Shown here: in pieces, positions 6,526 to 64,000 of the stretch
How positions within the stretch are numbered: the stretch's first letter is position 1
Layout of the letters: every line of letters begins with the position of its first letter
Sequence record: PZ738962.1
Direction: 5' to 3' (one strand)
From: a phage
Length of the DNA: 64,000 nucleotides
Notes under the pieces: model-generated
What the model was told of the DNA's origin: nothing
Databases searched by the model: none
Seen by the model: the letters and a program-made list of their open reading frames with translations, nothing else
Position numbers and translations under genes: made by a program

Positions 6526-8016
6526 ATGGCAGATTTGAAATATGGATCTACTGTAGGTGGATCTCCCATTTGGACGCAAGGAAACTTGACGATCCAGCCA
6601 GCAGGGGATCAGCTTTTCTACAAAGGTCATAAAATCTATACCGCTTTTGATAGACCTTCGGCTACCGATTTTGATGCTGTTAGTGCATCCGAAGGTGGCA
6701 CATTTCAAAAGCAAGTTCATTTCGAGGAAGGTTTAAGCGTAGGTAGCGCATCGGCAGGTGAAACCAAAAAGAATGGTATCTTTAAAGGTCAGAGCGACGC
6801 TGCTAATTTTGACGGCGTAAGCTGGGGTTTGCATTCATGGAAGTCAATCGGCTTTGTTAATGCCCGTGATGGCGTTATTATGGCGTATATTGACACCACA
6901 ACGGGCGAATTTAAGTCTAAAGGGACTATCGAAGGGACAACCATTAAAGACACAGGTCAACGCGTCTATAGCCCTGTTAATAAACCAACGAATAATGATT
7001 TGGATTTAGTTTCCCGTCGCGGTGATACTCTCTCAGGAACGTATAATTTAAACACTGTCACTGTTAAACTATCGGTTGATTCGAAATTAATTGCAAGGGA
7101 ACGTGATTTAATTAATTTTGATGCGACTAAGATCTATTATGGTAACGTTCTTGATACGTTGGTCTTCCGAAGTAAAGATGAGCCTACCATTTTTGTTAAT
7201 GGCAAAGAAGGTCGTTTTTATCACACCAACAATAAACCAACTAAAGCCGATGTTGGGCTAGGCAATGTCACCAATGATGCACAGGTTAAACGTGCTGGTG
7301 ATATTATGGAAGGTAACTTGCAAGCGCCTAGAATGTTGGCGACAAACGATCCTGCTGGTCCTAATGAATTGGTTCGTTTGAGCTACTTTGAGAGAAAATC
7401 AATGGTAGCAAATCCAACCATCATTGGAAACGTTGATTGGAACACTCTTATTAATCGCGGTATCTATCGTGTGGAAAATGCTGGGTCGGGTACTAATAAA
7501 CCGTCTGATAGCTATTATAATGGCGTTTTGATGGTATATCGCCCAGAAGATGCGGTCGGTACTCGTCGAATTGTTCAGGTGTATTATCCTGAATCTATTG
7601 ACCATCCGATGTGCTGGCGTTCGTGTTCTAATGAATCATGGACTGCATGGAACTATGTAGATCACCGTAAATTAGCCGATATTCGCTATGTTAACGTAAC
7701 TGGCGATACCATGACAGGACCGTTAACTGTTCCGGCTGCAAACGGTGTTAGAACGGCTATAGGTGCATATAATGGTGATAACTACTATGCTGGGTTAAAT
7801 AGTGCCGATGGCACGGCTATGATTCACCGTATCAGCGATATTAAAGCCACTGAAAAATTGGGTATTACACATGATTCGAAAGCTGTTTTCGTTAAATCGC
7901 GTGGAAATACTCAAGCCACAGACCGCTATGAACTTTACCACGAAGGGCATAAACCTACCCCTGCCGAAGTTGGAGCGGTTCCACTTAATGCGGTGATTGA
8001 TTTTGGTACTTTCTAA
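6526..8016 (+). CDS. 36: long tail fibre distal connector gp36 (extended relative to T4)
   Basis: 496 aa; N-terminus MADLKYGSTVGGSPIWTQGN matches T4 gp36 start as recalled; T4 protein is much shorter. Confidence 0.8.
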   Translation: MADLKYGSTVGGSPIWTQGNLTIQPAGDQLFYKGHKIYTAFDRPSATDFDAVSASEGGTFQKQVHFEEGLSVGSASAGETKKNGIFKGQSDAANFDGVSWGLHSWKSIGFVNARDGVIMAYIDTTTGEFKSKGTIEGTTIKDTGQRVYSPVNKPTNNDLDLVSRRGDTLSGTYNLNTVTVKLSVDSKLIARERDLINFDATKIYYGNVLDTLVFRSKDEPTIFVNGKEGRFYHTNNKPTKADVGLGNVTNDAQVKRAGDIMEGNLQAPRMLATNDPAGPNELVRLSYFERKSMVANPTIIGNVDWNTLINRGIYRVENAGSGTNKPSDSYYNGVLMVYRPEDAVGTRRIVQVYYPESIDHPMCWRSCSNESWTAWNYVDHRKLADIRYVNVTGDTMTGPLTVPAANGVRTAIGAYNGDNYYAGLNSADGTAMIHRISDIKATEKLGITHDSKAVFVKSRGNTQATDRYELYHEGHKPTPAEVGAVPLNAVIDFGTF

Positions 8017-8021
8017 TTTTA

Positions 8022-8046
8022 GCGGGGATTATCTCCCCGCTTTTCT
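8022..8046 (+). terminator. intrinsic terminator after gene 36
   Basis: hairpin GCGGGGA-TTATC-TCCCCGC followed by TTTTCT. Confidence 0.55.
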
Positions 8047-8086
8047 AAATAATATTATTCTAATAACCGTTTAAGGATTTTATAAA

Positions 8087-11029
8087 ATGGCAGATTTAAG
8101 CAGAATCCAATTTAAACGCACTAGCACTAAAGGTCGTAAACCGGATGCTAGTACGATGAATCCGGGGGAATTGGCAATCAACCTTGCGGATCAATATCTT
8201 CTTACTAAAAATGATTCCGGTACTATTATCAATTTAAGTTGTCCTCCGGTTTATGACCGCGATGTTACAATGGCGGGTAAGGTTAAAGGTAATAATTATA
8301 TCTTAAGTAAAACCGCTAACTATCTGGAAGATCAGACAGCGAGAGATCTTAACTACTTTGGTGCTTTCCGTACCAATGGTCTTGATGGTCTTCTCGAACT
8401 CACGCTAAACGTTCCTCACTCTTCCGGTGTCCAACATGGTCGAGGATTTACTTTCCAGTATGGACATACTGGATCACGAGTAGAAACCTATGGCTATAAT
8501 AGAGAAGGTCAAAAAGCATTTAGCTATAAAATGTATCACGAAGGTGATAAACCAACTCCAGGAGAATTGAACGTCTATAGCAAACAAGAAGTTGACCGTA
8601 TGTTTGTTAAGAACGTTAAACTTGCTACATCTCCTAGTGATATCGTTGAAGGCTATTTTAAATTAGCAACTGCAATGATTCCACAAAACGGTCTTAGCGT
8701 ATTTTTCCGTATTCATGGTGGTAACGGATATAACGTTACTGCATACGATCAAGTTGATATTGTAGAAATTGTTATTCGCAGTGGAAATGGTCGCCCTAAA
8801 GGTGTTAACGTTATTGCATATCGCCGAAATACAAACAAATCATTTGATGTTTTGGCTGTTAATACTTCTGGTGATAACTATGATATCTATGTGAAATATC
8901 AGCGTTACACTGATAACGTTATTGTTGAATTTGGTAAAAGTGTTGGTGTTAATCTGGTAGTTCATGACGTTCCAGATTTTGTTGCTGAACGTCCTGCTGG
9001 TGATAATGTTATTGGCGGTCGTGCTGTAACTCTTTTCAACACCGAAAACAAACGAGGTGTGTTGAGTTTTGACGATAACACACAAAATAGTTATGATATT
9101 GTTCACTTGAGTAATGATAGGGGTACTGGACGAAAATATATTCGTAAATTCCGTAGCAACTATAATGAAATGATTTGGCATGAGACGGTTCAAGGTTCTA
9201 CTTATCGACTCGCCACGGGTAGTACAGATGCTCAGGAGATTCTAACCGTTGAATCTAGTAGCTCTATTTCTGGGACTCATAAAGGTAATATTCTTTCTGG
9301 TCGAATGATGTTGGGTGGCGGTAGTAATGTTATTACCTTGCGGCGTCCTGCTGGTCAATCCAACCATATTGCGTTTCAAGATAATCGTACTGGAGCTATT
9401 ACCCGTCAAGGGTGGATCGGTTATGGTAATGCTGATACTAACGTTTTTGAATGGTATAGTGATGTAGGTGGTAGTTCTATTCGTCACCACATCGACGGAC
9501 AGATCGAACTTGCAACCGGTAACACAAAACGCGTTTATACTAACGCTCAATTCATCTCAATGAATAGCGACGCCTACCGTATGATCTACGGTAATTATGG
9601 TGCATTCTGGCGTAATGATGGTGGTAAAGTTTATCTTCTTTCTACTGCCGAAAATGATACATTGGGCGGATGGAACGGCAACCGACCATTTATTTACGAT
9701 TTAACAACTGGTAAAGTTACTTTAGGTGGAGACGGTAACGAAGGCGCATTAGTTCTCGAAAGAGATAGCCGTGCGGCTAGATTTGCTGGCGACATTTACG
9801 TTGGCAAAGGGATGTTAACATTTGATGCCGGACGATTAAATTCTCGCGATTACTTCCGGTTTAACCATTGGGGCGATAGCAATAACGCGCGTGATAACAT
9901 TTTACAGCTTGACGATAGCATAGGTGCACACTTCACCACTGAACGTACTTTAGCAACTGGTGCAATTAAAACTAAATTCTTCGGTAATTTGGAATCTGCT
10001 GGTCAAATTAAATGGGGTAAAGGGACCGCCACATCTACGTTTACTCTACGTGTATGGGGTAGCGATAGCCGTAAACAAATATTTGAATGCGGCGATGAAA
10101 GCGGGTGGCATTGGTATACCCAACGCGCTGGCGGTCCAGATACTTCTGCAATTGAGTTTGCCATCAACGGTACTGTTCGGCCTCAAGCAATTCACACTGG
10201 CGGTAATATCACTATCAACGGTGCTGATATTGAGTTTCGTCGCACTGGCAATAAGCACATCTGGTTTAGAGATCCGAACGGTTTAGAATTGGGTCTGTTG
10301 TACTGCGATGATGCTGGTGTTATGCGTATGCGCGGTGAGAAACAAACCGAAGTCTGGAAATTCGGCGGTAAGATGATTCAACTTGAAACTGGTACTGTTT
10401 CCGGTGGAGGTAATGGCCTGATTCGTGGTTCTGTTGCTGGTGGTAGTTGGACTAGCTGGCGTGATCGTGCTTCCGGTTTACAGGTAGACTGTCAACAATC
10501 AACCGATTCCGCTCATAACGTATGGAAAGCAACCCATCAAGGTAAATATCATATAGCAGCAATGGGTGTACACGTTCCTAGCGGTACTATCGGAAATGCT
10601 ATGGTGCGTATGCACGTACACGATGCAACTTTTGACTGGGGTGCGAGCGGTGACTTCCAAGCAAGCCGTAATGGTAATTTTAACGATGTTTATATTCGTT
10701 CTGATGCTCGCCTTAAAATCAACAAGGAAGAGTATAAGGAGAATGCCACCGATAAAGTTAATCGCTTGACGGTATACACCTATGACAAGGTTAAATCTTT
10801 AACCGACCGTACTGTCATTGCTCATGAAGTTGGTATTATTGCTCAGGATCTTGAGAAAGAATTGCCGGAAGCAGTAACAACTTCTAAGGTCGGCGATCCT
10901 GATAAGCCAGAAGAGATCTTAACAATTTCTAACTCTGCTGTCAACGCTCTTTTAATTAAGGCGTTTCAGGAAATGAGCGAAGAATTGAAAGCCGTTAAAG
11001 CTGAACTAGCGGAACTTAAAAAGAATTAA
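8087..11029 (+). CDS. 37: long tail fibre distal subunit gp37 with C-terminal intramolecular chaperone domain
   Basis: 980 aa; N-terminus MADLSRIQFKR...GELAINL matches T4 gp37 pattern; C-terminus carries an SDARLK...GIIAQDL motif plus coiled coil. Confidence 0.85.
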   Translation: MADLSRIQFKRTSTKGRKPDASTMNPGELAINLADQYLLTKNDSGTIINLSCPPVYDRDVTMAGKVKGNNYILSKTANYLEDQTARDLNYFGAFRTNGLDGLLELTLNVPHSSGVQHGRGFTFQYGHTGSRVETYGYNREGQKAFSYKMYHEGDKPTPGELNVYSKQEVDRMFVKNVKLATSPSDIVEGYFKLATAMIPQNGLSVFFRIHGGNGYNVTAYDQVDIVEIVIRSGNGRPKGVNVIAYRRNTNKSFDVLAVNTSGDNYDIYVKYQRYTDNVIVEFGKSVGVNLVVHDVPDFVAERPAGDNVIGGRAVTLFNTENKRGVLSFDDNTQNSYDIVHLSNDRGTGRKYIRKFRSNYNEMIWHETVQGSTYRLATGSTDAQEILTVESSSSISGTHKGNILSGRMMLGGGSNVITLRRPAGQSNHIAFQDNRTGAITRQGWIGYGNADTNVFEWYSDVGGSSIRHHIDGQIELATGNTKRVYTNAQFISMNSDAYRMIYGNYGAFWRNDGGKVYLLSTAENDTLGGWNGNRPFIYDLTTGKVTLGGDGNEGALVLERDSRAARFAGDIYVGKGMLTFDAGRLNSRDYFRFNHWGDSNNARDNILQLDDSIGAHFTTERTLATGAIKTKFFGNLESAGQIKWGKGTATSTFTLRVWGSDSRKQIFECGDESGWHWYTQRAGGPDTSAIEFAINGTVRPQAIHTGGNITINGADIEFRRTGNKHIWFRDPNGLELGLLYCDDAGVMRMRGEKQTEVWKFGGKMIQLETGTVSGGGNGLIRGSVAGGSWTSWRDRASGLQVDCQQSTDSAHNVWKATHQGKYHIAAMGVHVPSGTIGNAMVRMHVHDATFDWGASGDFQASRNGNFNDVYIRSDARLKINKEEYKENATDKVNRLTVYTYDKVKSLTDRTVIAHEVGIIAQDLEKELPEAVTTSKVGDPDKPEEILTISNSAVNALLIKAFQEMSEELKAVKAELAELKKN
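10700..11026 (+). other. peptidase S74-like intramolecular chaperone (auto-cleaving) domain at gp37 C-terminus
   Basis: SDARLKINKEEY...VYTYDK...GIIAQDLEKELPEAV...coiled coil; matches the conserved SDxRxK / GxIAQ signature of endosialidase and T5 pb1 C-terminal chaperone domains. Confidence 0.65.
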
Positions 11030-49995: not shown

Positions 49996-50254
49996 AAATC
50001 GCCCTCAGTTCTTTATAGCCTCCAATGTGCTCGTTGTCAATGAATATCTGGGGGTATACAAATCGGAGGCTCTTTGAGTTCAGCCTCCCCGCCAGTTCTT
50101 CAATCATATCACGGTCGGGAATAATGTCAACCCCGACCTGCTTGAATACTGGTTTAAGTGTATACGGAATACCCAGATCATCCAGTAGCTTCATTGCACT
50201 AATACAACCATAACAATGATAAGCCTCTTTCGGTATGCCGTATATCTCGATCAT
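49985..50254 (-). CDS. glutaredoxin/thioredoxin-like protein (NrdH/NrdC-like, CYGC active site)
   Basis: 89 aa; CxxC active site near N-terminus, C-terminal IGGYKELRAxY glutaredoxin signature. Confidence 0.75.
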   Translation of the reverse strand: MIEIYGIPKEAYHCYGCISAMKLLDDLGIPYTLKPVFKQVGVDIIPDRDMIEELAGRLNSKSLRFVYPQIFIDNEHIGGYKELRAIYDY

Positions 50255-50748
50255 TTCTCAGCCTTTAATCTTTCTAGTTCTTCTTCCAGTTCCTTGATCC
50301 GTTGGTCACGTTCAAAGTCACGCTGCAACTTAGTGGCGAATACTCGTTTAAACTGATTGTAATCATCGATTTTAAACACTTCTTCTTCGCCATAGCGACG
50401 TACAGAAACTTCGTAGTTATTGAATAATTGTTCCAACATTGCATCAGTAGTCAGTTCTGACGACACCACTTTAAAATAACGTTCTTCTGATTGCAAAAAC
50501 CAGTTGTGCGCGTATTCCCGTACATCATCAACATCTCGACAGGTGTATGTTTTTCCATCAATTTCAATCGCAGAAACATATTCGATATCTGAAGCAATTT
50601 TTTCAAAAGCGATAACTTTAAATGTACGGTCACCGATAAAGTCTGCTATTGCATCATTTGCAACACTGGTTGCAAATGCTTTCCGCGCTCGCTCGTTTTT
50701 CCACTGATAGGTCATACCAACAACAAACATATTACCATCAACAAACAT
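50251..50748 (-). CDS. paralog-family protein A1 (WKxxxAxxxF...IEIDG...ERYFKVV module)
   Basis: start at ATG 50748 with GAGGA upstream; 5' end contains an 18-bp perfect tandem duplication; shares module with 50750..59044 paralogs. Confidence 0.55.
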   Translation of the reverse strand: MFVDGNMFVVGMTYQWKNERARKAFATSVANDAIADFIGDRTFKVIAFEKIASDIEYVSAIEIDGKTYTCRDVDDVREYAHNWFLQSEERYFKVVSSELTTDAMLEQLFNNYEVSVRRYGEEEVFKIDDYNQFKRVFATKLQRDFERDQRIKELEEELERLKAEK

Positions 50749-50749
50749 A

Positions 50750-51574
50750 TTACCATCCTCGCTCTTTACCAATCAAAAATTCAACTTCACGACGTTTAAT
50801 GTCTTCTTGAAGGTCTTTAATCTTCTGGCGATCTTGCATGATTTCATCCATCTTGTCAAGTGCCGCAATGAAATCATCGAAACGTTCAAAGGTTTTACCT
50901 TCATTTGCTTCGCCAAATTTAACCATTGTCAGGCCGTAACGACTACTAAACAGACGTTTCAACTGTCCAACGATCTTAGAATCAGTGGTTATAACTTCCA
51001 ATTCTTCTACTTCACGAAAGAATTTTCTATCAGAATCAATAAACCAGCTAGTTCCTTTATGGTCTCTATCTTCGGTTGCGCTCATTAGAGTATGGTCTTT
51101 ACCATCAATTTCAATTACATCAATTTGCCCACATGGACGAACATTTTTAACAGTAAAAGGTCTATAATTTATTGCTCGTGCAATAACATAATTAAGATTA
51201 GATACGTTTTCAGCATAATGACAGAAGTCGGTCATAGCATTCGCATCTTTCCAAGTATAAGTTTTACCAACTTCCCATTTCTGGGGAACTTCTTCAACTT
51301 CACGAAAGAATTTTCGATCGAATGGACTAAAGAAATATGTTGCAGTCCAAATGTCTTTTCCTGTAGCAGTTTTCGCCGTATGATAAACACCGTCTAGCTC
51401 TATTGCATCAATCCAACCGTTATCATCGATCTCGATGATGGTAAATGGCTTGTCACCAATAGCTGCACTAATATCGCTGTTAAGTGGAGAAAGAACACCT
51501 TCTCCGTTAGTAATAAACTCAGTTTTAGCGTTTTCATCTTTCCAGGTGTAGGTTTTACCAATTTCCCATTTCAT
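50750..51574 (-). CDS. paralog-family protein A2 (two tandem copies of the module)
   Basis: 274 aa; MKWEIGKTYTWKD...FDRKFFREVEE then QKWEVGKTYTWKD...DSDRKFFREVEE; coiled-coil tail. Confidence 0.6.
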   Translation of the reverse strand: MKWEIGKTYTWKDENAKTEFITNGEGVLSPLNSDISAAIGDKPFTIIEIDDNGWIDAIELDGVYHTAKTATGKDIWTATYFFSPFDRKFFREVEEVPQKWEVGKTYTWKDANAMTDFCHYAENVSNLNYVIARAINYRPFTVKNVRPCGQIDVIEIDGKDHTLMSATEDRDHKGTSWFIDSDRKFFREVEELEVITTDSKIVGQLKRLFSSRYGLTMVKFGEANEGKTFERFDDFIAALDKMDEIMQDRQKIKDLQEDIKRREVEFLIGKERGW

Positions 51575-51586
51575 AATATATTCCCC

Positions 51587-52051
51587 TTAACCGATTTTAT
51601 CAAGTTCGTTTAATGCTTTCTCTGCTTCCTGTATAGCTTGCACCCTTTCCGGCATTTTGTCAAGAAAATCTTTCAACTCTTCAAAACTGGAGATATGACG
51701 CAATGCGTTAGCACCGATAGCCGCATGTGATTTGCATTCAAAGCGGATTTTATAATTATCCATCGCCAACTTGAGAAGATCAATTAATTTAGATTCTTCT
51801 GGAATAATAATTTCTTCAAATCTGCTACGGTCATGATCCAGAAACCAACAAGATAGACCTACATCGGTTGAACTCATATAAGTTCCATCATGAAGATAAA
51901 CAGACCGCACGTATCCTTTTTTCGCATCAACCGACGCAACTTTAAACGGTAATCGCAGATATTTCAAATAATCAACATCATACCATTTAAAAAATTGGTT
52001 TGCATCTTTTACATCTTTCCACGCATAGGTCTTACCAGCTTCCCATTTCAT
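51587..52051 (-). CDS. paralog-family protein A3
   Basis: start set to ATG 52051 (MKWEAGKTYAWKD) by paralog alignment; track ORF starts 5 codons upstream. Confidence 0.55.
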   Translation of the reverse strand: MKWEAGKTYAWKDVKDANQFFKWYDVDYLKYLRLPFKVASVDAKKGYVRSVYLHDGTYMSSTDVGLSCWFLDHDRSRFEEIIIPEESKLIDLLKLAMDNYKIRFECKSHAAIGANALRHISSFEELKDFLDKMPERVQAIQEAEKALNELDKIG

Positions 52052-52055
52052 AATA

Positions 52056-52583
52056 TCATCTCTCATTTTTGATACGTGATTCTAATTGGATCATACGGTC
52101 GCGCGTTTGTTTGTATTCTCGGATAGCACCGATCCGGCTAGGCATACCATCCAGTACGCTCTTAATACCTTCTAGGGTAGTGATTTTAGCAATGCTATTA
52201 TGCAACCCCATCTTATCGATCAACTGAATGTCGTAGGCTTCCATAAGCAGACCCAGACGTTCTAAAGTTAGGTCTTCTTCTTTTTCTTCAGAATCTGGAA
52301 TCTTAGGTTCAATAATAACTTCGGTAAAGAAACGACGCTCACCCGACCAAAACCACACACCGGAACAGCCAATAGGGGATTCTTTTAACGTCATAGAGTC
52401 GAAATCACTACCAATAATAGTAATTTCTCTAACATCACCATCATCGTCAAGGTCTTCTACCCTAAACGGGCGACCAGCCAACAAGTCAACAATACATCTG
52501 TTAATAGACGACGAAAATTTAGTCAGTTCGGCTTTCGACGCTTCGCATTCAATCTTGTAAGTTTTACCAACTTCCCATTCCAT
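52056..52583 (-). CDS. paralog-family protein A4
   Basis: start at ATG 52583 (MEWEVGKTYKIE) with TTGAGGTG upstream; ERRFFTEV motif. Confidence 0.55.
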   Translation of the reverse strand: MEWEVGKTYKIECEASKAELTKFSSSINRCIVDLLAGRPFRVEDLDDDGDVREITIIGSDFDSMTLKESPIGCSGVWFWSGERRFFTEVIIEPKIPDSEEKEEDLTLERLGLLMEAYDIQLIDKMGLHNSIAKITTLEGIKSVLDGMPSRIGAIREYKQTRDRMIQLESRIKNER

Positions 52584-52593
52584 AATAATCACC

Positions 52594-53096
52594 TCAAATA
52601 ATTTTCACTGGAATACTATTAACAATCTTGTATTGTACTTGATTGTCAGACCCCCGCCACGGCTTCTTCGTTGGCATATCTTTAATATAACGCCCATCGA
52701 TGAACATGTCAACTGATTCTACAATTTTTCTTTGCTCATCATTCAATTGGTCAAGGGTATAACCGGACCATAGCCAAATATCTTTATTTGGCATCCATGA
52801 TTTTACTTCATCGATGATCCGCTGTACACCCTTTAAATTGCGTTTATACAATGGATCGCCACCTAAGAATGTTAGCCCCTGAATAAAATCAGGTCTAAGC
52901 AGATCCAGAATCAATCCCATTGTATCATCGGTGAATGGTTCCCCGTTCTTAGGATTGAGTAGGCTAGCATTAAAGCAACCATCACATGCGTGTGAACATC
53001 CGGTAACGTAAAGGGAGACTCTCACTCCCTCACCGTTAACCATATCACAATCTTTAATATCGGCATAGCGTAGTTTGCCGTATGTATCAGAACTCA
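52594..53096 (-). CDS. nrdG: anaerobic ribonucleotide reductase activating protein (radical SAM)
   Basis: CxxxCxxC motif GCSHACDGC; similarity to T4 NrdG region; start at ATG 53096. Confidence 0.85.
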
Positions 53097-53239
53097 TATT
53101 CAATTACCCCGAACTCGTTTACAATCTGCGCTTTATAGTAACCACCGCGAGATGCTAATAGATAAGCTGGGCTTAGGTATTCGTATTCACGGATTTCTAC
53201 TTGTGCGTTTTCAGTTTCCCAAATCAGTAAAGTCCACAT
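53087..53239 (-). CDS. hypothetical small protein (50 aa from ATG)
   Basis: ATG at 53239 preceded by GGAGAATCAAAT leader downstream of PeSL promoter; track ORF start would lie upstream of the promoter. Confidence 0.4.
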   Translation of the reverse strand: MWTLLIWETENAQVEIREYEYLSPAYLLASRGGYYKAQIVNEFGVIEYEF

Positions 53240-53281
53240 ATTTGATTCTCCTGTAAAGTTGTATCTCGTCTTGATGAATAT

Positions 53282-53310
53282 AGTATAGGGGATCTCGCGA
53301 TCCCCGTCAA
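53282..53310 (-). promoter_or_regulatory. PeSL-type early promoter (TTGACG-N17-TATACT) with GGGGATC.../...GATCCCC stem-loop
   Basis: inverted repeat GGGGATCGCGAGATCCCC within spacer. Confidence 0.55.
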
Positions 53311-53314
53311 GCAT

Positions 53315-53842
53315 TTATTTTAAATTTTTTCGAATGTAGTCAGACCATTCCTTCCCTGTCAGTTCGGTCCCATTCTGGAAACTGAAATATTCATACGGCA
53401 TCGAGTCAAGATAAAACAGGATCATACATCGCGCCATATAATACCAATCACGATTAAAGTAAACTACGTTATCGCCAGTACCATCAGCACCTTTATCATA
53501 ACCATCGCGGGTACGGGCGACCCATTGAATAGTATCAGTTTTCTCACGGATCGTAACAGGTTCCCAATATCCAGCACATCCAGCATGACCACACGAACAA
53601 GTAAGGAAATATTGTCCTTTTGCTTTGTTGTCATCCCATTCACGATGGATTGGTTCGATCTCGTGAAACAGTGCTAAGCAATCATGATTATGCAACACTG
53701 GCTTACCATCAATCAATGCATGGAATGTATACAAACGACCAGTAGACAAATAGTTATCTTCTCGCTCTACAAGTTCAATAGCAATCTTTTTAGCTCGTTC
53801 TTTGTGTCGTTGTGCTTTACGCTTACGGTTTAATGATTTCAT
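53315..53842 (-). CDS. hypothetical Cys-rich protein (175 aa from ATG)
   Basis: ATG at 53842 with GTGTGAGGTG upstream; basic N-terminus; CSCGHAGCAGYWE cluster. Confidence 0.5.
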   Translation of the reverse strand: MKSLNRKRKAQRHKERAKKIAIELVEREDNYLSTGRLYTFHALIDGKPVLHNHDCLALFHEIEPIHREWDDNKAKGQYFLTCSCGHAGCAGYWEPVTIREKTDTIQWVARTRDGYDKGADGTGDNVVYFNRDWYYMARCMILFYLDSMPYEYFSFQNGTELTGKEWSDYIRKNLK

Positions 53843-53859
53843 ATTCACCTCACACATTA

Positions 53860-54399
53860 TCAAAGGTCGCGATATAGTACATTATGAAAATGAGAACTTG
53901 CATTACCAATATTGTAGATAATAAATTCTTCATCCGGCGCTTGCGCTACAAATTGAGTATGAGCAACCGCCACAACCTTAAAAATACGATCCGTGATCTT
54001 GTGTTTAATTTCTGCCCCTACTTCCATAGGAACATATTCATTTGTTTCTGTTTCAGTCGCAAAACAGCCATCTTCTTCATAAGCACGAACAAATCGATCG
54101 CAATCAGTACGCTTAACAAATTCAAGAGTATACAATTCTCGTGAATTGTCGGTATAGACCAATACAGAATTATTATGATAGCGAATCACATACAGGTTAT
54201 TATCATCGTCAATTACGCAAAAGCTACGGATTCCTTCGCCTTGACTCCAACAGATATTAACCACCGTTCCTCTAATAAAAAAACTTTCCTTTAAATTAAA
54301 ACTAGTCAATGTGCTAGCGTGCATTTTAACAACAACACCATCGCCAATTTCCAGTTTACGAAGTTTAACTTCTTTGTTCAGTACACAAAACATCATCAT
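53860..54399 (-). CDS. hypothetical protein (179 aa)
   Basis: ATG with ACGAGAGGACAAC upstream. Confidence 0.55.
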   Translation of the reverse strand: MMMFCVLNKEVKLRKLEIGDGVVVKMHASTLTSFNLKESFFIRGTVVNICWSQGEGIRSFCVIDDDNNLYVIRYHNNSVLVYTDNSRELYTLEFVKRTDCDRFVRAYEEDGCFATETETNEYVPMEVGAEIKHKITDRIFKVVAVAHTQFVAQAPDEEFIIYNIGNASSHFHNVLYRDL

Positions 54400-54428
54400 G
54401 TTGTCCTCTCGTTGTTTTCGATGTGAGC

Positions 54429-54456
54429 ATTATACATTAGCTAATCATGTTGTCAA
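54429..54456 (-). promoter_or_regulatory. sigma70-type early promoter (TTGACA-N16-TATAAT)
   Basis: consensus hexamers; drives 53860..54399. Confidence 0.55.
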
Positions 54457-54460
54457 CACC

Positions 54461-54494
54461 CCAAAACGAAAAAGCCGACCCTTTCGGATCGGCT
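54461..54494 (-). terminator. intrinsic terminator (minus strand) after nrdD
   Basis: hairpin AGCCGATCCGAAAGGGTCGGCT followed by UUUUCGUUUU on minus strand; same stem family as 6335 and 16292. Confidence 0.6.
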
Positions 54495-54499
54495 GAAAT

Positions 54500-56362
54500 T
54501 TACATGTGCTTAACGCGGTTTACCATCTCGGAGTGTTTCCCGTGGTTGAATGGACGCAGATCAACAGATCCAAGATATCCACTAACGCGACGGATAACAT
54601 TCATCTTTTCCAGATTGTCATTACCGCAATCAGGACAAACAAAACCAGACTCGGTCGCTCTCATTTCCTTAGTAGATCCGCATACATGACATACATCAGA
54701 AGGAGTATTAACACCGAAGTAGTGCAATTTATCCATTGCATAGTCTACTACAGTTTCAAGACCTTTCAGGTTGTTTTTCATGTCTGGGAACTCAACATAA
54801 GAGATCATGCCACCGGACGCCAGCCAGTGATAATCTTTCTCAAAGTCAATTTTCTCAAATGGAGTGACTTTCCGGTCTACGTCAAGGTGGAATGAGTTGG
54901 TGTACCAGTCTTTATCGGTAGCACCCTTAACAATACCAAATTGCTCTCGGTCCAGTCGATTAAATCGATAGCAAAGGCTCTCGGCTGGAGTACCGTAAAG
55001 ACTAAACCCAAGTCCGGTTTCGTCCTTCCATTTTTCAGTATAATGACGCAAGATCTTAAGAATATGTTTACCGTATCGCTGCGCATCTTCCGAATCAAAC
55101 GGATGAACACCAAACAGGACGCTCAATACCTCATGTAAACCAATATATCCAAGAGAGATACTAGCGCGACCATCTTTCAACACTTCCAAAATTTCATCGT
55201 TTTGATGAATACGGAAAAACGCACCTTCGGTATACAGCACCGGAGCAACATTGGCTTTAGCCCCTTTTAAAGCGTCTACGCGACTCATGAGCGCATCAAA
55301 GCAAATAGGCATACGATTGGCTAGCTCTTGTTCGAATAGCTCAATTCTGCGCATTACAGACGCTTTACCAGCACGACGCGCGGCAATAAGGGCAATACGC
55401 GGAAGATTCAGGGTCACAACACCCAAGTTATTACGTCCGTCTAATACTTCTTCGCCTTTCTCATTATGCCACACACCCAGGAAGCTACGACAACCCATCG
55501 GGCTAACCGGAACACTAGATCCGGTGATACTACGGTTATTCTTCGCAGAGATATAATCAGGGTAAAGACGCTTACTAGAACATTCCAATGCAAGTTGCTT
55601 AATGTCGTAGTTCGGATCTTCCGGTTTAAGGTTTAATCCTTCTTCTAAGAACATCACCAGCTTAGGAAACACCGGAGTGATACCATCTTTACCTAAACCT
55701 TTAGTTCGAACGTTCAGGATCGCTTTCTGAATCAGTTTTTCTTCCCAGCTAGTACCCATACCAAAGGTTAAAGTCACAAAAGGCGTTTGACCGTTGGTGG
55801 AGAACAAAGTGTTGATTTCATATTCCAACGCTTGATACCCGTCTAAAGTTTCTTTTTCTGTCTTCTCTTGTGCATAGAGAGTATCAGCTTTGATTCCGTA
55901 GGTTTCGGCATCAGCAAGGTGTTTATGATATGTTTTCTCAACATACGGTGCTAACACCTGATCGATGTTTGCGATTGTGGTCCCGCCATATTGATGACTT
56001 GCCACCTGTGCGATAATTTGAGCGGTTACAGCACAAGCAACGCCGATTGATTTCGGACTTTCGATTTGTGCGCTACCCAATTTAAAACCATTCTCTAACA
56101 TGTCTTTGAGATTAACAAGACAGCAGTTAGTAAACGGCATAGCGGGTGCATAATCCATATCATGATAATGAATGTCACCGTCTACATGCGCTTTATAGAT
56201 GTGCTCAGGTAACACGGTTTTAGCAATCTGTTTAGACACAGCACCAGCAATCAGATCTCGACGTGTCGGGAATGTTCGCGCGTCTTTGTTCGCGTTCTCT
56301 TTGCTTACTTCGTTTTCTTTACCCGTTGCGATCTCTGTAATGTCTTTGATTAGTTTTTCCAT
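54500..56362 (-). CDS. nrdD: anaerobic ribonucleoside-triphosphate reductase
   Basis: 620 aa; C-terminal glycyl-radical region RRVSGYLG and zinc-ribbon CHVCG...CPDCG; uninterrupted ORF. Confidence 0.9.
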   Translation of the reverse strand: MEKLIKDITEIATGKENEVSKENANKDARTFPTRRDLIAGAVSKQIAKTVLPEHIYKAHVDGDIHYHDMDYAPAMPFTNCCLVNLKDMLENGFKLGSAQIESPKSIGVACAVTAQIIAQVASHQYGGTTIANIDQVLAPYVEKTYHKHLADAETYGIKADTLYAQEKTEKETLDGYQALEYEINTLFSTNGQTPFVTLTFGMGTSWEEKLIQKAILNVRTKGLGKDGITPVFPKLVMFLEEGLNLKPEDPNYDIKQLALECSSKRLYPDYISAKNNRSITGSSVPVSPMGCRSFLGVWHNEKGEEVLDGRNNLGVVTLNLPRIALIAARRAGKASVMRRIELFEQELANRMPICFDALMSRVDALKGAKANVAPVLYTEGAFFRIHQNDEILEVLKDGRASISLGYIGLHEVLSVLFGVHPFDSEDAQRYGKHILKILRHYTEKWKDETGLGFSLYGTPAESLCYRFNRLDREQFGIVKGATDKDWYTNSFHLDVDRKVTPFEKIDFEKDYHWLASGGMISYVEFPDMKNNLKGLETVVDYAMDKLHYFGVNTPSDVCHVCGSTKEMRATESGFVCPDCGNDNLEKMNVIRRVSGYLGSVDLRPFNHGKHSEMVNRVKHM

Positions 56363-56375
56363 TGTATCACCTATG

Positions 56376-56396
56376 AAAAAGCGGGATTTCTCCCGC
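56376..56396 (-). terminator. intrinsic terminator (minus strand) after 56407..56901
   Basis: hairpin AGCGGGA-GAAA-TCCCGCT followed by UUUUU on minus strand. Confidence 0.55.
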
Positions 56397-56406
56397 TCGT
56401 TGATAG

Positions 56407-56901
56407 TTATTTTACCAGTTCTGCTAATTCTTTTTCTTTAGCTTCTAGTTCAGCTTTAAGCTGTTTAATCTCTTGTCGCTTCTTATTAGCGGCTTCCTGC
56501 TTACTATTTCGGATAACCTGATCTAGATACAACTCCCAATCCTGAATATTTTTGATAATGTATCCGTCAACATTAATTGGTCGGAGATTCAGTACAGCTT
56601 CCAGTTTAGTCGCAAAAACTTTAATTGCTGGCGTGAAGTATTCATATTCGTTATCTTCAAACCAATAACCTAGACTTGCATTATCAATACGAAGACGAAG
56701 TTCAAGATCAAGGTCTTTATCTTCGGTGTAAAGATCTTTCACCTGACCCAGCGAACTAACAACAACTTTAAAACGAATTTTATCTACACCACCAAACACA
56801 TCAGTAAGTATACCAGCAATTGAGCTATTAGCGCAAGATTGGTCGCTGAATGCGTCAAGGTTTTCTTTAGTTACAGTATACCAAACATCTTGTACCCACA
56901 T
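56407..56901 (-). CDS. hypothetical protein with C-terminal coiled coil (164 aa)
   Basis: ATG with GAGAGGATTATATT upstream. Confidence 0.55.
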   Translation of the reverse strand: MWVQDVWYTVTKENLDAFSDQSCANSSIAGILTDVFGGVDKIRFKVVVSSLGQVKDLYTEDKDLDLELRLRIDNASLGYWFEDNEYEYFTPAIKVFATKLEAVLNLRPINVDGYIIKNIQDWELYLDQVIRNSKQEAANKKRQEIKQLKAELEAKEKELAELVK

Positions 56902-56931
56902 AATATAATCCTCTCGTTGTTAAGTGGGAGT

Positions 56932-56959
56932 ATTATAGCATACTCCCTTCGCATGTCAA
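56932..56959 (-). promoter_or_regulatory. PeSL-type early promoter (TTGACA-N16-TATAAT) with GGGAGTA/TACTCCC stem-loop
   Basis: inverted repeat GGGAGTATGCTATAATACTCCC. Confidence 0.55.
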
Positions 56960-58134
56960 GCACTAACTTTTTTCTTTACTGCTTTCACCTTCTGGCGAAT
57001 TGCTCGAATCTCTTCGATCTCTTTTTCAGTCTCTTTAACAATTTCTTTGCGATTCTGAATATCTGTATCTAGATTATCATCAAGTTTAGGCAGCATGTCA
57101 ATCAAGAACTTTTTAAAGTCTTTCAGGTTTCGGATAACAGCACCTTCACCCATTACCGCCACGCCTACACCATCCGGCAGATCACCAAACAGCTTAACCA
57201 GTTCAGACAGATGATCATGATCTTCTAGTGCTTCTTCCGGTTCAGATGGCAGTTCAACAAAGTTATAACGTTCATCATTGCTGATCAAGTGATACCAGCA
57301 AAGACCGAAAGATTTCGGTGTATATTCTACACCATCAATTTCAACCGCGTCAACACTTCCATAATCATCTACTTTAGTTACCTTAAATCCTTGTCCCAGC
57401 TTTTGAACAATTTCAACAACATGACTTGATACAGTTTCAGCGGTAAACCAATATGGCAAATTATGCTGATTTGGTTTGTAGCGTTCACCTACTTTAAATC
57501 TCTGACCATCCGCTTGCATAGAATGAAATTGTTGTTTCGTGATTTCCGCGAAGTATTCAAATTCGCTACCGTCAAACAAGCAATTCCATTGATCACAAAA
57601 ACGGTCCGCCTTGACGGTTTCACCTTTCGCGGTGATCATGGTAGCTGATCCGTGCAATTCTTCTTCAACTAAAAAGCCATATTCGACAAAATCAACAAGT
57701 TTCATGGCTTCTTTGTGCTCTGGGTCATGCTCTCCCCAGAATCGCTTAAATTCTTGCAAACCTTCTGGGGTAAACGAATAACATTTACCTTTTTCAAAGT
57801 AAGTCGGCATTGCATCCTCTTTCTTGTTCATCGCTTCGTATGCCTCTTTTGAGATACGTTTAAAGTATTTGCGCTCATTGTGCATAATCATAGTAGACCA
57901 ATAATAAACGATATCCTCAGCGGAATAAACTACATCTCCAGCTTCAATAGTAATAACATGACCGTGGTCATCTTTTTCTAATACTTTAAAGCCCTTTTCT
58001 ACGATTTCAGCAACCCGAATATGACCACGGCGCGAAGCATCGGTCAGAATAATTGAATAGCGAGAAAAGTCTAGAAACTCATCTTTACCGCCTTCACGGA
58101 ATGCATAGTAATGACCTTCAAAGAATTTAGCCAT
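56956..58134 (-). CDS. paralog-family protein A5 (392 aa, multiple copies of the module)
   Basis: repeated x-IDG/IEAG...ERKYF-like modules (NERKYFKRISKEAYEAM, DERYNFVEL) plus coiled-coil tail. Confidence 0.55.
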   Translation of the reverse strand: MAKFFEGHYYAFREGGKDEFLDFSRYSIILTDASRRGHIRVAEIVEKGFKVLEKDDHGHVITIEAGDVVYSAEDIVYYWSTMIMHNERKYFKRISKEAYEAMNKKEDAMPTYFEKGKCYSFTPEGLQEFKRFWGEHDPEHKEAMKLVDFVEYGFLVEEELHGSATMITAKGETVKADRFCDQWNCLFDGSEFEYFAEITKQQFHSMQADGQRFKVGERYKPNQHNLPYWFTAETVSSHVVEIVQKLGQGFKVTKVDDYGSVDAVEIDGVEYTPKSFGLCWYHLISNDERYNFVELPSEPEEALEDHDHLSELVKLFGDLPDGVGVAVMGEGAVIRNLKDFKKFLIDMLPKLDDNLDTDIQNRKEIVKETEKEIEEIRAIRQKVKAVKKKVSA

Positions 58135-58165
58135 AATATAATCCTCTCGTTGTTTAGATGGGAGT

Positions 58166-58194
58166 ATCTTACTACTCCCGTTTCATCATGTCAA
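58166..58194 (-). promoter_or_regulatory. PeSL-type early promoter (TTGACA-N17-TAAGAT) with GGGAGTA/TACTCCC stem-loop
   Basis: near-identical to copies at 14646 and 15226. Confidence 0.5.
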
Positions 58195-58757
58195 GCGTTA
58201 AATGACTTTTGGATCTCTTTCAGTTCAGCTACTTTATCTGCGCTGAATTTAGCGTAGGTATCATGTCGAATAATTTCACTTTCAAGAAAGGTTTCCAGCC
58301 GAGATCTATTTTCAATAAGGAACTCTTTCAGGTCTTCTGCGTTCTTGATAAAGATTTTATTGTCGGTAATGTCATCTTCAATCGCAAAGGAGATAGAGCG
58401 AACTTTACCAAACAAGTTAATCAGATCTTCCAGAGATTCTTCTTTCTTAACTGGTTTCATTTCTTCAAACTGCTTTTTAGTGATGCGTTTAAAGTATTTG
58501 CGCTCGCTTGCATCAATCATGATTGACGCACCCTCATAATCATGAGTTTCTACCAAATACACTTTACCCATAACATTAACCGTAAGAACTTTAAAGCCCC
58601 TGTGAAGCACACCATACAGGAACTTGTTATGTTGTGGGTAGCGTTTAACAAATTCCTCTGCGGACTCAGCATTACGGAAAGTGTAATAACGACCTCGTTC
58701 AAAAACAGCATCAGTTGAAGACTTAGCCGGATACAATTTATACGTTTTCTGTACCAT
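58191..58757 (-). CDS. paralog-family protein A6
   Basis: start at ATG 58757 with AGAGGATTATATT upstream; SERKYFKRITKKQFEEM motif. Confidence 0.55.
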   Translation of the reverse strand: MVQKTYKLYPAKSSTDAVFERGRYYTFRNAESAEEFVKRYPQHNKFLYGVLHRGFKVLTVNVMGKVYLVETHDYEGASIMIDASERKYFKRITKKQFEEMKPVKKEESLEDLINLFGKVRSISFAIEDDITDNKIFIKNAEDLKEFLIENRSRLETFLESEIIRHDTYAKFSADKVAELKEIQKSFNA

Positions 58758-58771
58758 AATATAATCCTCTA

Positions 58772-59044
58772 TCATTTCACTAATTGAACAGCACGGAACA
58801 GAATGCGCTCACACGGAAGCAGCATAAATTCCCAACGCGGATCAAAGTCTTTAGCGGTGTATGTTTTCCCATCAACCGAGATTTCACTTACATAACCAAC
58901 AGGTGACACTTTAAGAACAGTAAACCCATTCTTGATGACTTCGTAGGTATCTTTCACCCCTTCGTATTCATCATCTAAGAAGTCTTTATGTGCTTGCTCA
59001 GATTTAAAAACATAGGCAACACCGGATTTAAACATCTTACGCAT
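58772..59044 (-). CDS. paralog-family protein A7 (90 aa from ATG)
   Basis: start at ATG 59044 after GGAGAATCAACA leader; ISVDGKTYTAKDF motif. Confidence 0.5.
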   Translation of the reverse strand: MRKMFKSGVAYVFKSEQAHKDFLDDEYEGVKDTYEVIKNGFTVLKVSPVGYVSEISVDGKTYTAKDFDPRWEFMLLPCERILFRAVQLVK

Positions 59045-59075
59045 TGTTGATTCTCCTTCTTGATTAGATGGGAGT

Positions 59076-59104
59076 ATTTTACTACTCCCATTTCTTATTG
59101 TCAA
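59076..59104 (-). promoter_or_regulatory. PeSL-type early promoter (TTGACA-N17-TAAAAT) with GGGAGTA/TACTCCC stem-loop
   Basis: same cassette as 58166; directly after gene 49 stop. Confidence 0.5.
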
Positions 59105-61958: not shown

Positions 61959-62267
61959 TTATTTCACGTTAACGCCGTTATCAATCCAGCCGACGCTATT
62001 TGGTTTAACAGTTTTACCATAGGATGCATACTTAATCAAGCATGGTTTAACATCATTATCAAATCTTCCTAAACGTACTCCCAAATCAGGAATATCCATG
62101 TATGCGGCTTTATATCCCCATGTACCGTATTCAGAATCAATCTCAACCGGACGGCCTTTAAAAGCATACACTACACCGTGACGGTCAACGATAACATAGC
62201 GATAGCCAGCCGGAAGATACACAGTTTCGCCGTAAACTTTAACTGGAGTAGCAGAAGAGATAAACAT
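61959..62267 (-). CDS. hypothetical protein (102 aa from ATG)
   Basis: ATG at 62267 with GAGGATTATATT upstream, downstream of consensus promoter. Confidence 0.5.
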   Translation of the reverse strand: MFISSATPVKVYGETVYLPAGYRYVIVDRHGVVYAFKGRPVEIDSEYGTWGYKAAYMDIPDLGVRLGRFDNDVKPCLIKYASYGKTVKPNSVGWIDNGVNVK

Positions 62268-62301
62268 AATATAATCCTCACATCGTTCATTTGATGCGGT
62301 C

Positions 62302-62330
62302 ATTATATGATAACCGCATTTTCATGTCAA
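62302..62330 (-). promoter_or_regulatory. PeSL-type early promoter (TTGACA-N17-TATAAT) with GCGGT.../...ACCGC stem-loop
   Basis: consensus hexamers; inverted repeat GCGGTTATCATATAATGACCGC. Confidence 0.6.
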
Positions 62331-62655: not shown

Positions 62656-62934
62656 TTACATGTCTTGCAGTGCATAAAAGCATTTTTCTTCGTAGTCATA
62701 GAAAATGTCAAAGTATGCTTTTTCTACATACTCGCCATTGATCCAAGCGGCAGTAACAATCAGAGTGGTCCAGGTAGATCCGCTCTCAACGGTAAAGGTT
62801 TTAATACCCAGCTTCGCTGCCAAGTCGAACGCAAACCGGACGCAACCACGACAGGAAGTGATGTTGGAAGTTTTGATTTTAAAGCCACCGCGAGTTTTAG
62901 AAATTTCTACTTTAGCGAAAGACAGGTTGCTCAT
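62656..62934 (-). CDS. hypothetical protein (92 aa from ATG)
   Basis: ATG at 62934 after GGAGAATCAAA leader of PeSL cassette. Confidence 0.5.
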   Translation of the reverse strand: MSNLSFAKVEISKTRGGFKIKTSNITSCRGCVRFAFDLAAKLGIKTFTVESGSTWTTLIVTAAWINGEYVEKAYFDIFYDYEEKCFYALQDM

Positions 62935-62976
62935 TTTGATTCTCCTTAAGAAAGTGTGTTTCGTTTTGATGTGTGT

Positions 62977-63005
62977 AGTATAGGGGATCACCGATCCCCT
63001 GTCAA
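62977..63005 (-). promoter_or_regulatory. PeSL-type early promoter (TTGACA-N17-TATACT) with GGGGATC.../...GATCCCC stem-loop
   Basis: inverted repeat GGGGATCGGTGATCCCC; near-duplicate of 53282 copy. Confidence 0.55.
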
Positions 63006-63022
63006 CAACTTTTTTTATGATT

Positions 63023-63277
63023 TTAGTGAATTAACTCTACACCAAAATGAGGCACAGAGAACGCCTTACAAAACACATATTCATCATGTTTAGGAATCGC
63101 CCCTAACCGCTCTATTTCGCTCGCTAACACTATAAACTGTTTATCTGGTGCATATGCCTTGCGTGCTTCAACAACGCACGGAAAACGCGTTTTAGCGAGT
63201 TCGGGATAGTTTTCTGACTCCAGCAGGACAATGAATACCCTGTTACATTGATTGTAGAATCCTGTTTTTGATTTCAT
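63023..63277 (-). CDS. hypothetical protein, possible member of paralog family B (84 aa from ATG; start uncertain)
   Basis: ATG at 63277; overlaps upstream gene end; alternative ATG at 63319. Confidence 0.35.
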   Translation of the reverse strand: MKSKTGFYNQCNRVFIVLLESENYPELAKTRFPCVVEARKAYAPDKQFIVLASEIERLGAIPKHDEYVFCKAFSVPHFGVELIH

Positions 63278-63581
63278 CAAGTTTTCTTCTCTGTACAATT
63301 CGTGCAATCTTCCTTTCATGATTTCGTTGGTTCTTGTCTTCACAGTTTACCCACTCAACAAGGTCTTTACCTAACTCGAAAGCCCATTCTCGGTCTTGCT
63401 TTACGTTTTGTAGGTATGGACTTTCTGACACTCTACGAAGTGATGTTGTCGTAACAAGAATGATCTCAGGAATGGTCGGATGTTCTTTTCCATATACAAT
63501 AGGACGCGAGTTACTATCAATACCTTGTAAGAAGGTGTATCCTGAATCACTTAGAATCATATACTTTTTCATTTCACACAT
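63243..63581 (-). CDS. paralog-family protein B2 (SDSGYTF...PIVYG motif)
   Basis: ATG at 63581 overlapping upstream stop (TGATG); N-terminal region similar to 63581..63838. Confidence 0.45.
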   Translation of the reverse strand: MCEMKKYMILSDSGYTFLQGIDSNSRPIVYGKEHPTIPEIILVTTTSLRRVSESPYLQNVKQDREWAFELGKDLVEWVNCEDKNQRNHERKIARIVQRRKLDEIKNRILQSM

Positions 63582-63838
63582 CACAGTTTCCTCAACCAGT
63601 TATTAAAGCGAGTAAACCATGATGCTTTTCGTGCTTCTTTTACTTTATGTGCACGCAAACCACTGAAACACCATTCATAATCATCACTGAAACATGATTC
63701 CACAGGAACACCCGCATTTCGTAGTTCTCTGGTCTTTATCATGAATCCTTGACATAAGGGGCGACCTTCAACAATGACAGGAAGTTTAACTTTTTCCATG
63801 AAAGTATACCCAGCACGGTCAATAATTTCAATCTTCAT
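63581..63838 (-). CDS. paralog-family protein B1 (85 aa)
   Basis: ATG with GAGGATTATATT upstream; IIDRAGYTF...LPVIVEGRP...AGVP...YEWCF. Confidence 0.5.
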   Translation of the reverse strand: MKIEIIDRAGYTFMEKVKLPVIVEGRPLCQGFMIKTRELRNAGVPVESCFSDDYEWCFSGLRAHKVKEARKASWFTRFNNWLRKL

Positions 63839-63856
63839 AATATAATCCTCAATTAG

Positions 63857-64000
63857 TTATACCGCCCAGGCTTCATTTGCACGAAAACACCATTCATATT
63901 CAGGAAAATAACCTTTAATTGGTACGCCAGCTTTTTGTAGTTCCTGCGTTTCTACAAGATAATCAAGCCCATAACGACGACCTTCCACGATGATAGGAAG
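63857..64000 (-). CDS. paralog-family protein B0, C-terminal part only (ORF runs off window end)
   Basis: open frame to position 64000; ...LPIIVEGRRYGLDYLVETQELQKAGVPIKGYFPEYEWCFRANEAWAV, clear paralog of 63581..63838. Confidence 0.45.
   Translation of the reverse strand, partial: LPIIVEGRRYGLDYLVETQELQKAGVPIKGYFPEYEWCFRANEAWAV

Follow-up and report, generated by a model that had tools for sequence, protein, structure and literature searches.

Genes for counter-defence and host takeover that evolve quickly or are amplified in tandem include the K3L "accordion" of poxviruses, amplified tifA in phage T4 and the contents of phage accessory-gene regions. More generally, small early ORFans account for a large part of phage genomes, and they are the source of many inhibitors of bacterial immunity and host machinery. 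The genes described here resemble the amplified counter-defence genes in being small, early, non-core, tandem and variable in copy number, with one hypervariable member, but their copies are old and diverged (20-50% identity) rather than recent amplifications. A preprint on accessory genes (bioRxiv 10.1101/2023.04.06.535777) makes no mention of RB49, JSE or T4-like phages.

A second described system comes from the same phage group. The early-promoter/stem-loop cassettes (PeSLs) of RB49 and phi1 act as promoters and terminators and mediate the shuffling of ORFans in hyperplastic regions (Arbiol et al. 2010, PMC2839356). The locus studied here is like these PeSL plus ORFan cassettes in its phage group, its orphan early ORFs, its GGGG...CCCC stem-loop promoters and its variable gene content, but the cassette holds eight genes, not one. 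That paper treats mobile regulatory cassettes and not the protein family phrog_7345/13367, and it contains no mention of ORF071-074, ORF080 or the word "paralog".

The genes themselves have carried the label hypothetical since deposition of the RB49 genome, and part of them have been catalogued (phrog_7345, VOG6032), although our literature search, using PHROG identifiers, the motif, RB49 ORF numbers and the papers on RB49 and phi1, found no description of the phrog_7345/13367 superfamily. What is added here is a single family, joined from sequence comparisons, that unites seven Krischvirus genes with at least five PHROGs of RB49-like phages and several PHROGs of other phages, together with a predicted fold, a recurrent pattern of amplification and fusion, and a hot spot of divergence in the gene pair that we call A and B.

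Gene content and organization of the array

The window analysed is a 64,000-nucleotide stretch of phage DNA (sequence record PZ738962.1). Megablast of positions 62900-64000 matched 59 phage genomes, all or nearly all of them RB49-like T4-type coliphages (Krischvirus); the closest was kaaroe at 98.5% identity, with RB49 at 96.3%, and the syntenic regions of kaaroe (L001) and RB49 (L002) were used to read beyond the window end. The array lies between dam/nrdC/gene 49 and rI/tk, in a region packed with small minus-strand genes annotated as hypothetical. A sequence-only reading of the window had described three or four adjacent minus-strand paralogs at its right edge, and we find three complete genes and a fourth truncated by that edge:

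63023..63277, minus strand: g103, orthologue of RB49p071 / kaaroe_103, ORF of 84 aa
63243..63581, minus strand: g102, orthologue of RB49p072 / kaaroe_102, ORF of 109-112 aa
63581..63838, minus strand: A, RB49p073 / kaaroe_101, ORF of 85 aa, the hypervariable copy
63857..64000, minus strand, cut by the window end: B, RB49p074 / kaaroe_100, C-terminal 47 codons and stop

As that reading had also supposed, the array runs off the window: directly beyond the edge lie the rest of B (65 aa when complete, in kaaroe), kaaroe_99 and kaaroe_98, and kaaroe_94 follows 2 kb further on, past a gene for a gp38-like adhesin. The phage thus has seven paralogs, RB49p071-076 being contiguous and p080 lying 2 kb away, and an HMM search of the ORFs found no further family members elsewhere in the 64 kb window.

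The copies share a small domain, whose predicted barrel is described below, and differ in what is attached to it. In A, the barrel spans residues 1-66 and is followed by a conserved basic amphipathic C-terminal helix (KEARKASWF.RFNNWLRKL, +5), g102 has an insertion within the barrel domain and a basic C-terminal helix (net charge +5), and g103, the most diverged of the copies in the window, carries a 13-residue N-terminal extension ahead of the domain. B is a tandem duplicate of A. In the neighbouring kaaroe_98 / RB49p076 (L001 7396-7830, 144 aa), only the N-terminal part is barrel, and the C-terminal residues 89-142 match a separate PHROG (phrog_10407, E 8e-26).

There is little space between the genes. 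The stop codon of A and the ATG of g102 share 1 nt (TGATG), the 3' end of g102 overlaps the start of g103 by 35 nt, and upstream of these the overlaps are 11 nt (kaaroe_99/B) and 4 nt (kaaroe_98/99), while a GAGGA ribosome-binding site lies after B, 18 nt before A. Genes 96, 97, 98, 99, B, A, g102 and g103 form one unit in kaaroe, in which every gap is 18 nt or shorter. Plus-strand antisense ORFs in 63302-63606 were set aside, as they are without relatives. A near-identical translation-initiation cassette, TGAGGATTATATTATG, precedes A, kaaroe_97 and the kaaroe_106 orthologue, at the following sites:

window 63836-63856: TGAGGATTATATTATG cassette
window about 62264-62283: TGAGGATTATATTATG cassette
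L001 8026-8057: TGAGGATTATATTATG cassette

Its repetition suggests either that recombination has used common junctions or that a single strong ribosome-binding site is being selected for.

Promoters and expression context

Promoters located around the array are:

62977..63005, minus strand: PeSL promoter TTGACA-17-TATACT (11/12 matches in the promoter scan), directly after g103
62302-62330, minus strand: second PeSL-type early promoter of the window, perfect TTGACA-17-TATAAT, its -10 box inside an ATGCGGT...ACCGCAT stem-loop
L001 8434-8369: terminator, then a perfect extended TTGACA-16-TATAAT promoter, upstream of kaaroe_96

The promoter at 63005-62977 has aaaaaaag upstream, a GGGGATC/GATCCCC stem in its spacer, and an AAGGAGA Shine-Dalgarno sequence with an ATG downstream. 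It thereby shows the elements of a PeSL (a sigma70-consensus promoter, an A/T-rich upstream stretch, a stem-loop, a Shine-Dalgarno sequence and the start codon of an ORFan), which makes it a candidate by sequence, and it probably drives the kaaroe_104 orthologue. Both window promoters, 62302-62330 and 62977-63005, match two PeSL subclasses described for RB49 and phi1. The seventh copy, kaaroe_94, has its own promoter and terminator.

The array would thus form the 3' part of one early transcription unit bounded by PeSL cassettes. The placement of these genes in an early region by the sequence-only reading is borne out to the extent that PeSL-type promoters with the sigma70 consensus (T4-type early) flank the array; we infer early expression from this promoter consensus only.

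Homology among the copies

All three motifs named in the sequence-only reading are present in A and B (AGYTF/GGFSF, LP(V/I)IVEGR and AGVP...YEWCF). The other two copies carry only some of them, SGYTF and EWAF in g102 and FPCVVEAR and EYVFC in g103, so the motif set holds in full for the A/B pair and in part for the rest. In single BLASTP comparisons, A matched B at 52% identity (E 2e-23), g102 at 25% identity (E 2e-4) and g103 at 24% identity (E 5e-4), and the 5' ends of A and B share 77 nt at 79% nucleotide identity. By hhalign, the A/B/C group matched the g102 group and the g103 group with P of about 1e-4 each (9e-5 for g103). An HMM built from core copies only found g102 at E 0.002 among 970 ORFs, and the sequence P0053 is an intermediate that links g102 to the family.

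The decisive test used an HMM built from 32 of the 33 single-domain members outside Krischvirus, omitting the bridging sequence P0053, and searched it against the 970 ORF fragments of the window and L001. Outside-built HMMs of this kind recovered A (E 4e-19), B (2e-18, and 2e-8 for the fragment of B in the window), g103 (1e-9 to 6e-10) and g102 (5e-7 to 3e-5), and beyond the window kaaroe_94 (3e-10), kaaroe_98 (4e-5) and kaaroe_99 (about 1e-4). Exactly seven of the 970 ORFs were matched, and the first match outside the family came at E 1.7, a gap of four orders of magnitude. Reciprocally, an HMM built from Krischvirus A/B/C only found 33 of 33 external members at E 9e-6 or below in a decoy set of 2393 sequences. 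The likeness that the sequence-only reading had seen between the copies is therefore significant, both in the A-B alignment and in the outside-built HMM that finds every copy, and by these profile matches the seven ORFs are one real, diverged tandem paralog family.

Existing catalogues hold this family in pieces. A and B match phrog_7345 at E 2e-38 and 1e-35, with A, B and kaaroe_94 spanning E 1e-34 to 1e-38, and phrog_13367 at about 1e-5; under strict membership of phrog_7345, A and B belong, and g102 (E 0.06) and g103 (no match) fall outside. The profiles of phrog_7345 and phrog_13367 are matched by 36-37 of 40 aligned relatives. The kaaroe annotation already puts genes 101, 100 and 94 together under VOG6032, and g102, g103, p075 and p076 are filed under PHROGs 16316, 17411, 15979 and 16117, which are not linked there to phrog_7345. 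All of these PHROGs, like the related entries 15322, 20482 and 5009 and pVOG VOG6032, consist of phage proteins of unknown function, and no fold or name is attached to any of them. A family profile would let annotators label many hypothetical proteins.

Distribution of the wider family

Word-indexed protein search returned almost only Krischvirus-like proteins, and only an exhaustive profile search reached the wider family: among 1.84 billion cluster representatives, 50 clusters matched at E below 1e-3, of which 33 are single-domain members from outside Krischvirus. The family consensus, MKVKLLNDGGY..M..VKFPV.VEG...V...EL.R.GA....W.F..G.ECEVIE, spans about 65-75 residues, and the domain has about 60. 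Members come from phages of Proteus, Morganella, Iodobacter, Pantoea and Aeromonas, a Drexlerviridae coliphage, further T4-like phages (about 170 kb) and prophage-like contigs (35-52 kb), and were found only in phage or prophage-like contexts. They always lie within runs of small early genes, often near genes for integrase, SSB, exonuclease, methylase or polymerase. The proteins are mostly acidic (median pI 4.8, median net charge -4), and one distant relative bears a membrane segment as a tail.

Amplification and fusion recur outside Krischvirus. Two-domain polypeptides make up 9 of the 50 cluster representatives, and tandem arrays were found at four further loci, one with four domains (L034) and three with two each (L020, L033 and L003). 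The largest array outside Krischvirus lies on an unrelated viral contig of 11.7 kb (IMG/VR UViG_3300046534_001085; L023 3153-4557), where six domains are carried by five back-to-back, partly overlapping ORFs, one of them a two-domain fusion.

Searches elsewhere returned little. The ORFs of 128 kb of T4 (1-78,000 and 119,000-168,903) gave no HMM match at E below 0.1, which places the family outside the T4-type core. Bacterial and archaeal genomes, scanned with one back-translated motif pattern and with sensitivity limited to that pattern, yielded no confirmed locus. Scans of the window proteins and 40 relatives with Pfam, NCBIfam and PADLOC found nothing meaningful: none of the proteins A, B, g102, g103, P0050, P0058 and P0009 matched a PADLOC profile at E 0.1 or below, and the best Pfam match, DUF1233, covered 17 residues at E 0.09 and was dismissed. 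When all PDB sequences were searched with a profile, there was no match at E up to 10.

Predicted fold

The AlphaFold2 (AF2) model of A has a mean pLDDT of 86.8, rising above 93 for residues 1-60. Its short strands form a small barrel, strand 1 leads into a long conserved loop, and the C-terminal helix (71-84) is separate. The model of g103 has a pLDDT of 74.9 (core 76-91), and its input alignment held A-type sequences, a possible bias toward the same fold. The secondary structure elements (E, strand; H, helix) are:

A, AF2 model: E2-5, H12-14, E21-24, E26-28, E31-35, H36-41 (one-turn helix), E55-59, E63-65
g103, AF2 model: E13-18, H25-27, E34-42, E47-51, H52-57, E66-69

Both models follow the same order of strand, loop with a short helix, hairpin, strand with a one-turn helix, and terminal strands. 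Foldseek searches of BFVD with the model of A returned uncharacterised phage proteins only, and the model of g103 returned the same phage proteins, including RB49p074 (TM 0.60/0.76). Structure prediction and fold search thus give one small barrel for the two copies and lead back to uncharacterised phage proteins, and the models suggest that A and g103 share an SH3-like small beta-barrel fold.

Compared with known SH3-like folds (the retroviral integrase C-terminal domain, Spt5 KOW, eukaryotic SH3, PetP and OapB), identity is 0-16% and Z is below 5. Unlike the known SH3-like barrels, the phage family has no recognisable motif for binding proline peptides or nucleic acid, and its signature LLNDGGY / FPV.VE / EL.R.G / W.F / ECEVI is specific to it. 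A local motif in which a short helix comes after a strand, "..(I/V).T.EL...G(V/A)..", recalls the swapped-hairpin domains of AbrB, SpoVT and MazE. The AbrB/SpoVT idea drawn from that motif was rejected, with no match found to the Pfam SpoVT-AbrB profile or to an AbrB-like dimer.

Divergence between related phages

Six Krischvirus genomes were compared for protein identity and gene content. For most genes here the proteins are 94-100% identical. No gene of the region diverges faster than A, which falls to 55-68% identity in G2248, UPWr_E1 and phiS, and g103 shows 81-86% identity. B is found in the RB49 species and phiS and is missing from JSE, G2248 and UPWr_E1. Reading frames are intact wherever copies are present in the six genomes, except in phiS, where p076 is truncated and copy C is absent; about 45% of the p076 protein is matched in phiS, and the barrel HMM finds no domain there.

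Pairwise NG86 dN/dS was 0.34-0.81 between diverged alleles of A, 0.02-0.53 for g102 and 0.17-0.46 for g103; for g99, kaaroe_94 and three neighbouring genes, most values lay below 0.2. No pairwise value exceeded 1 in any tested gene, so positive selection is not demonstrated, and because dS is likewise raised for A, allele replacement by recombination explains its divergence as well as diversifying selection does. The sequence-only reading had compared the array to rapidly evolving host-interaction genes; fast evolution holds for the A/B pair, whereas g99 and kaaroe_94 are strongly conserved, so the description fits only part of the family. Substitutions in A and B cluster at residues 7-10, 26-31, 44-52 and 59-66, which correspond to loops and the hairpin tip, and the strands and the C-terminal helix of A are conserved within the A/B subfamily.

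There are also possible traces of recombination between copies. The relative P0029, from contigs of about 170 kb, is a 60-aa chimera of a kaaroe_94-type sequence (the first 46 residues) and a kaaroe_99-type C-terminus. It would imply a viable deletion of about 2 kb between paralogs, with loss of the gp38-like gene and kaaroe_96-98, in an interval that corresponds to L001 about 7150-9500, and shows that the paralogs can act as deletion end points. The gp38-like adhesin gene (RB49p079; L001 8441-9226) encodes glycine-rich repeats; it is present in RB49, JSE and kaaroe at 76% identity and missing at the same position in G2248, UPWr_E1 and phiS. Over the N-terminal 26 residues, compared by eye between phiS (L011 4489-4971) and RB49 (L002), A and B are alike at 20-21 of 26 positions within a genome and at 17-18 of 26 between genomes. 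This likeness within genomes may hint at gene conversion between the tandem copies.

Possible functions of the array proteins

We propose, with about an even chance of being right, that these proteins are made early, work in the cytoplasm and bind host factors, possibly those of defence, and that their barrels may pair. Each would be a small module for protein binding that captures its target or blocks it, and the targets might include defence components or parts of competing phages. The scaffold would consist of the conserved strands and the conserved loop between strands 1 and 2 (LLNDGGY..M..VKFP), and specificity would be set by the variable hairpin and loops (residues 26-31, 44-52 and 59-66 of A) and by the differing C-terminal tails, which include the basic helices of A and g102, the extra domain of p076 and the membrane segment of one distant relative. 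The repertoire could be diversified through duplication, allele replacement, and the gain and loss of copies. The natural two-domain fusions suggest that the barrels may pair, whether as homodimers or between neighbouring copies. It counts against a role directed at host factors that, when all ORFs around 28 loci were clustered, no partner family travelling with the domain was found.

A more specific version holds that the family is a widespread, phage-specific binder scaffold with a conserved SH3-like barrel, hypervariable loops and exchangeable tails, which phages would expand into arrays so that each copy or pair neutralises a different target of host defence or takeover, and that the A/B alleles of Krischvirus are specificity switches in a continuing arms race. 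We regard this version as rather doubtful, but if true it would represent a new class of anti-defence or host-takeover proteins with built-in diversification logic. Candidates for work on binding partners and host range are A, B, g102 and g103, singly and paired. If no phenotype emerges, the array would be an ordinary case of ORFan turnover in T4-type hyperplastic regions.

Other roles are conceivable for a barrel of this shape. Small barrels bind nucleic acid in Sm, KOW, integrase C-terminal and OapB proteins, and the array proteins could likewise be early regulators of phage or host RNA or DNA, acting for example on mRNA stability, transcription or recombination at PeSLs; the mostly acidic character of the family fits protein binding better than nucleic-acid binding, and we think this role unlikely. 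Just as unlikely, in our estimate, is a role without any host target, in which the proteins serve the phage itself and assist its replication, recombination or morphogenesis proteins as accessory subunits, adaptors or chaperones. Strong conservation of g99, kaaroe_94 and p076 (dN/dS 0.0-0.27) is what would be expected for partners of conserved phage proteins, and the confinement of members to phage and prophage-like contexts agrees with it, but the family is scattered over unrelated phage types (from Straboviridae and Drexlerviridae to prophage-like contigs) with no obvious common phage partner, is absent from the searched part of T4, and differs in copy number and alleles between near-identical phages.

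The copies could also be cargo of the hyperplastic region that is for the most part dispensable and has little selected function, with PeSL-mediated recombination spreading and duplicating it. PeSLs do bound the array, ORFan shuffling through PeSL recombination has been documented in RB49 and phi1 (PMC2839356), copies have been gained and lost, and a natural deletion chimera of two paralogs exists (P0029). Set against this are the reading frames, which are intact in the six genomes apart from the two exceptions in phiS, the dN/dS values, which are below 1 for all copies and below 0.2 for several, and a domain whose clear motif signature is conserved across very distant phages, which requires long-term purifying selection on a function; we consider the cargo explanation very unlikely. 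Chance likeness between unrelated small ORFs is refuted as the source of the shared motifs, since the weak pairwise likeness of g102 and g103 to A and their placement in separate PHROGs are outweighed by outside-built HMMs that single out just the seven ORFs (E 4e-19 to 1e-4, with noise from E 1.7) and by the agreement of the predicted folds of A and g103.

A different paralog family occupies 50251-59104 of the window (minus strand) and is presumably the one that the sequence-only reading had counted as its first. It comprises at least seven ORFs of one to three modules that start with MKWE(I/V/A)GKTY.WKD; some have coiled-coil-like C-termini, and two are annotated as goF/frd.2-like in RB49.
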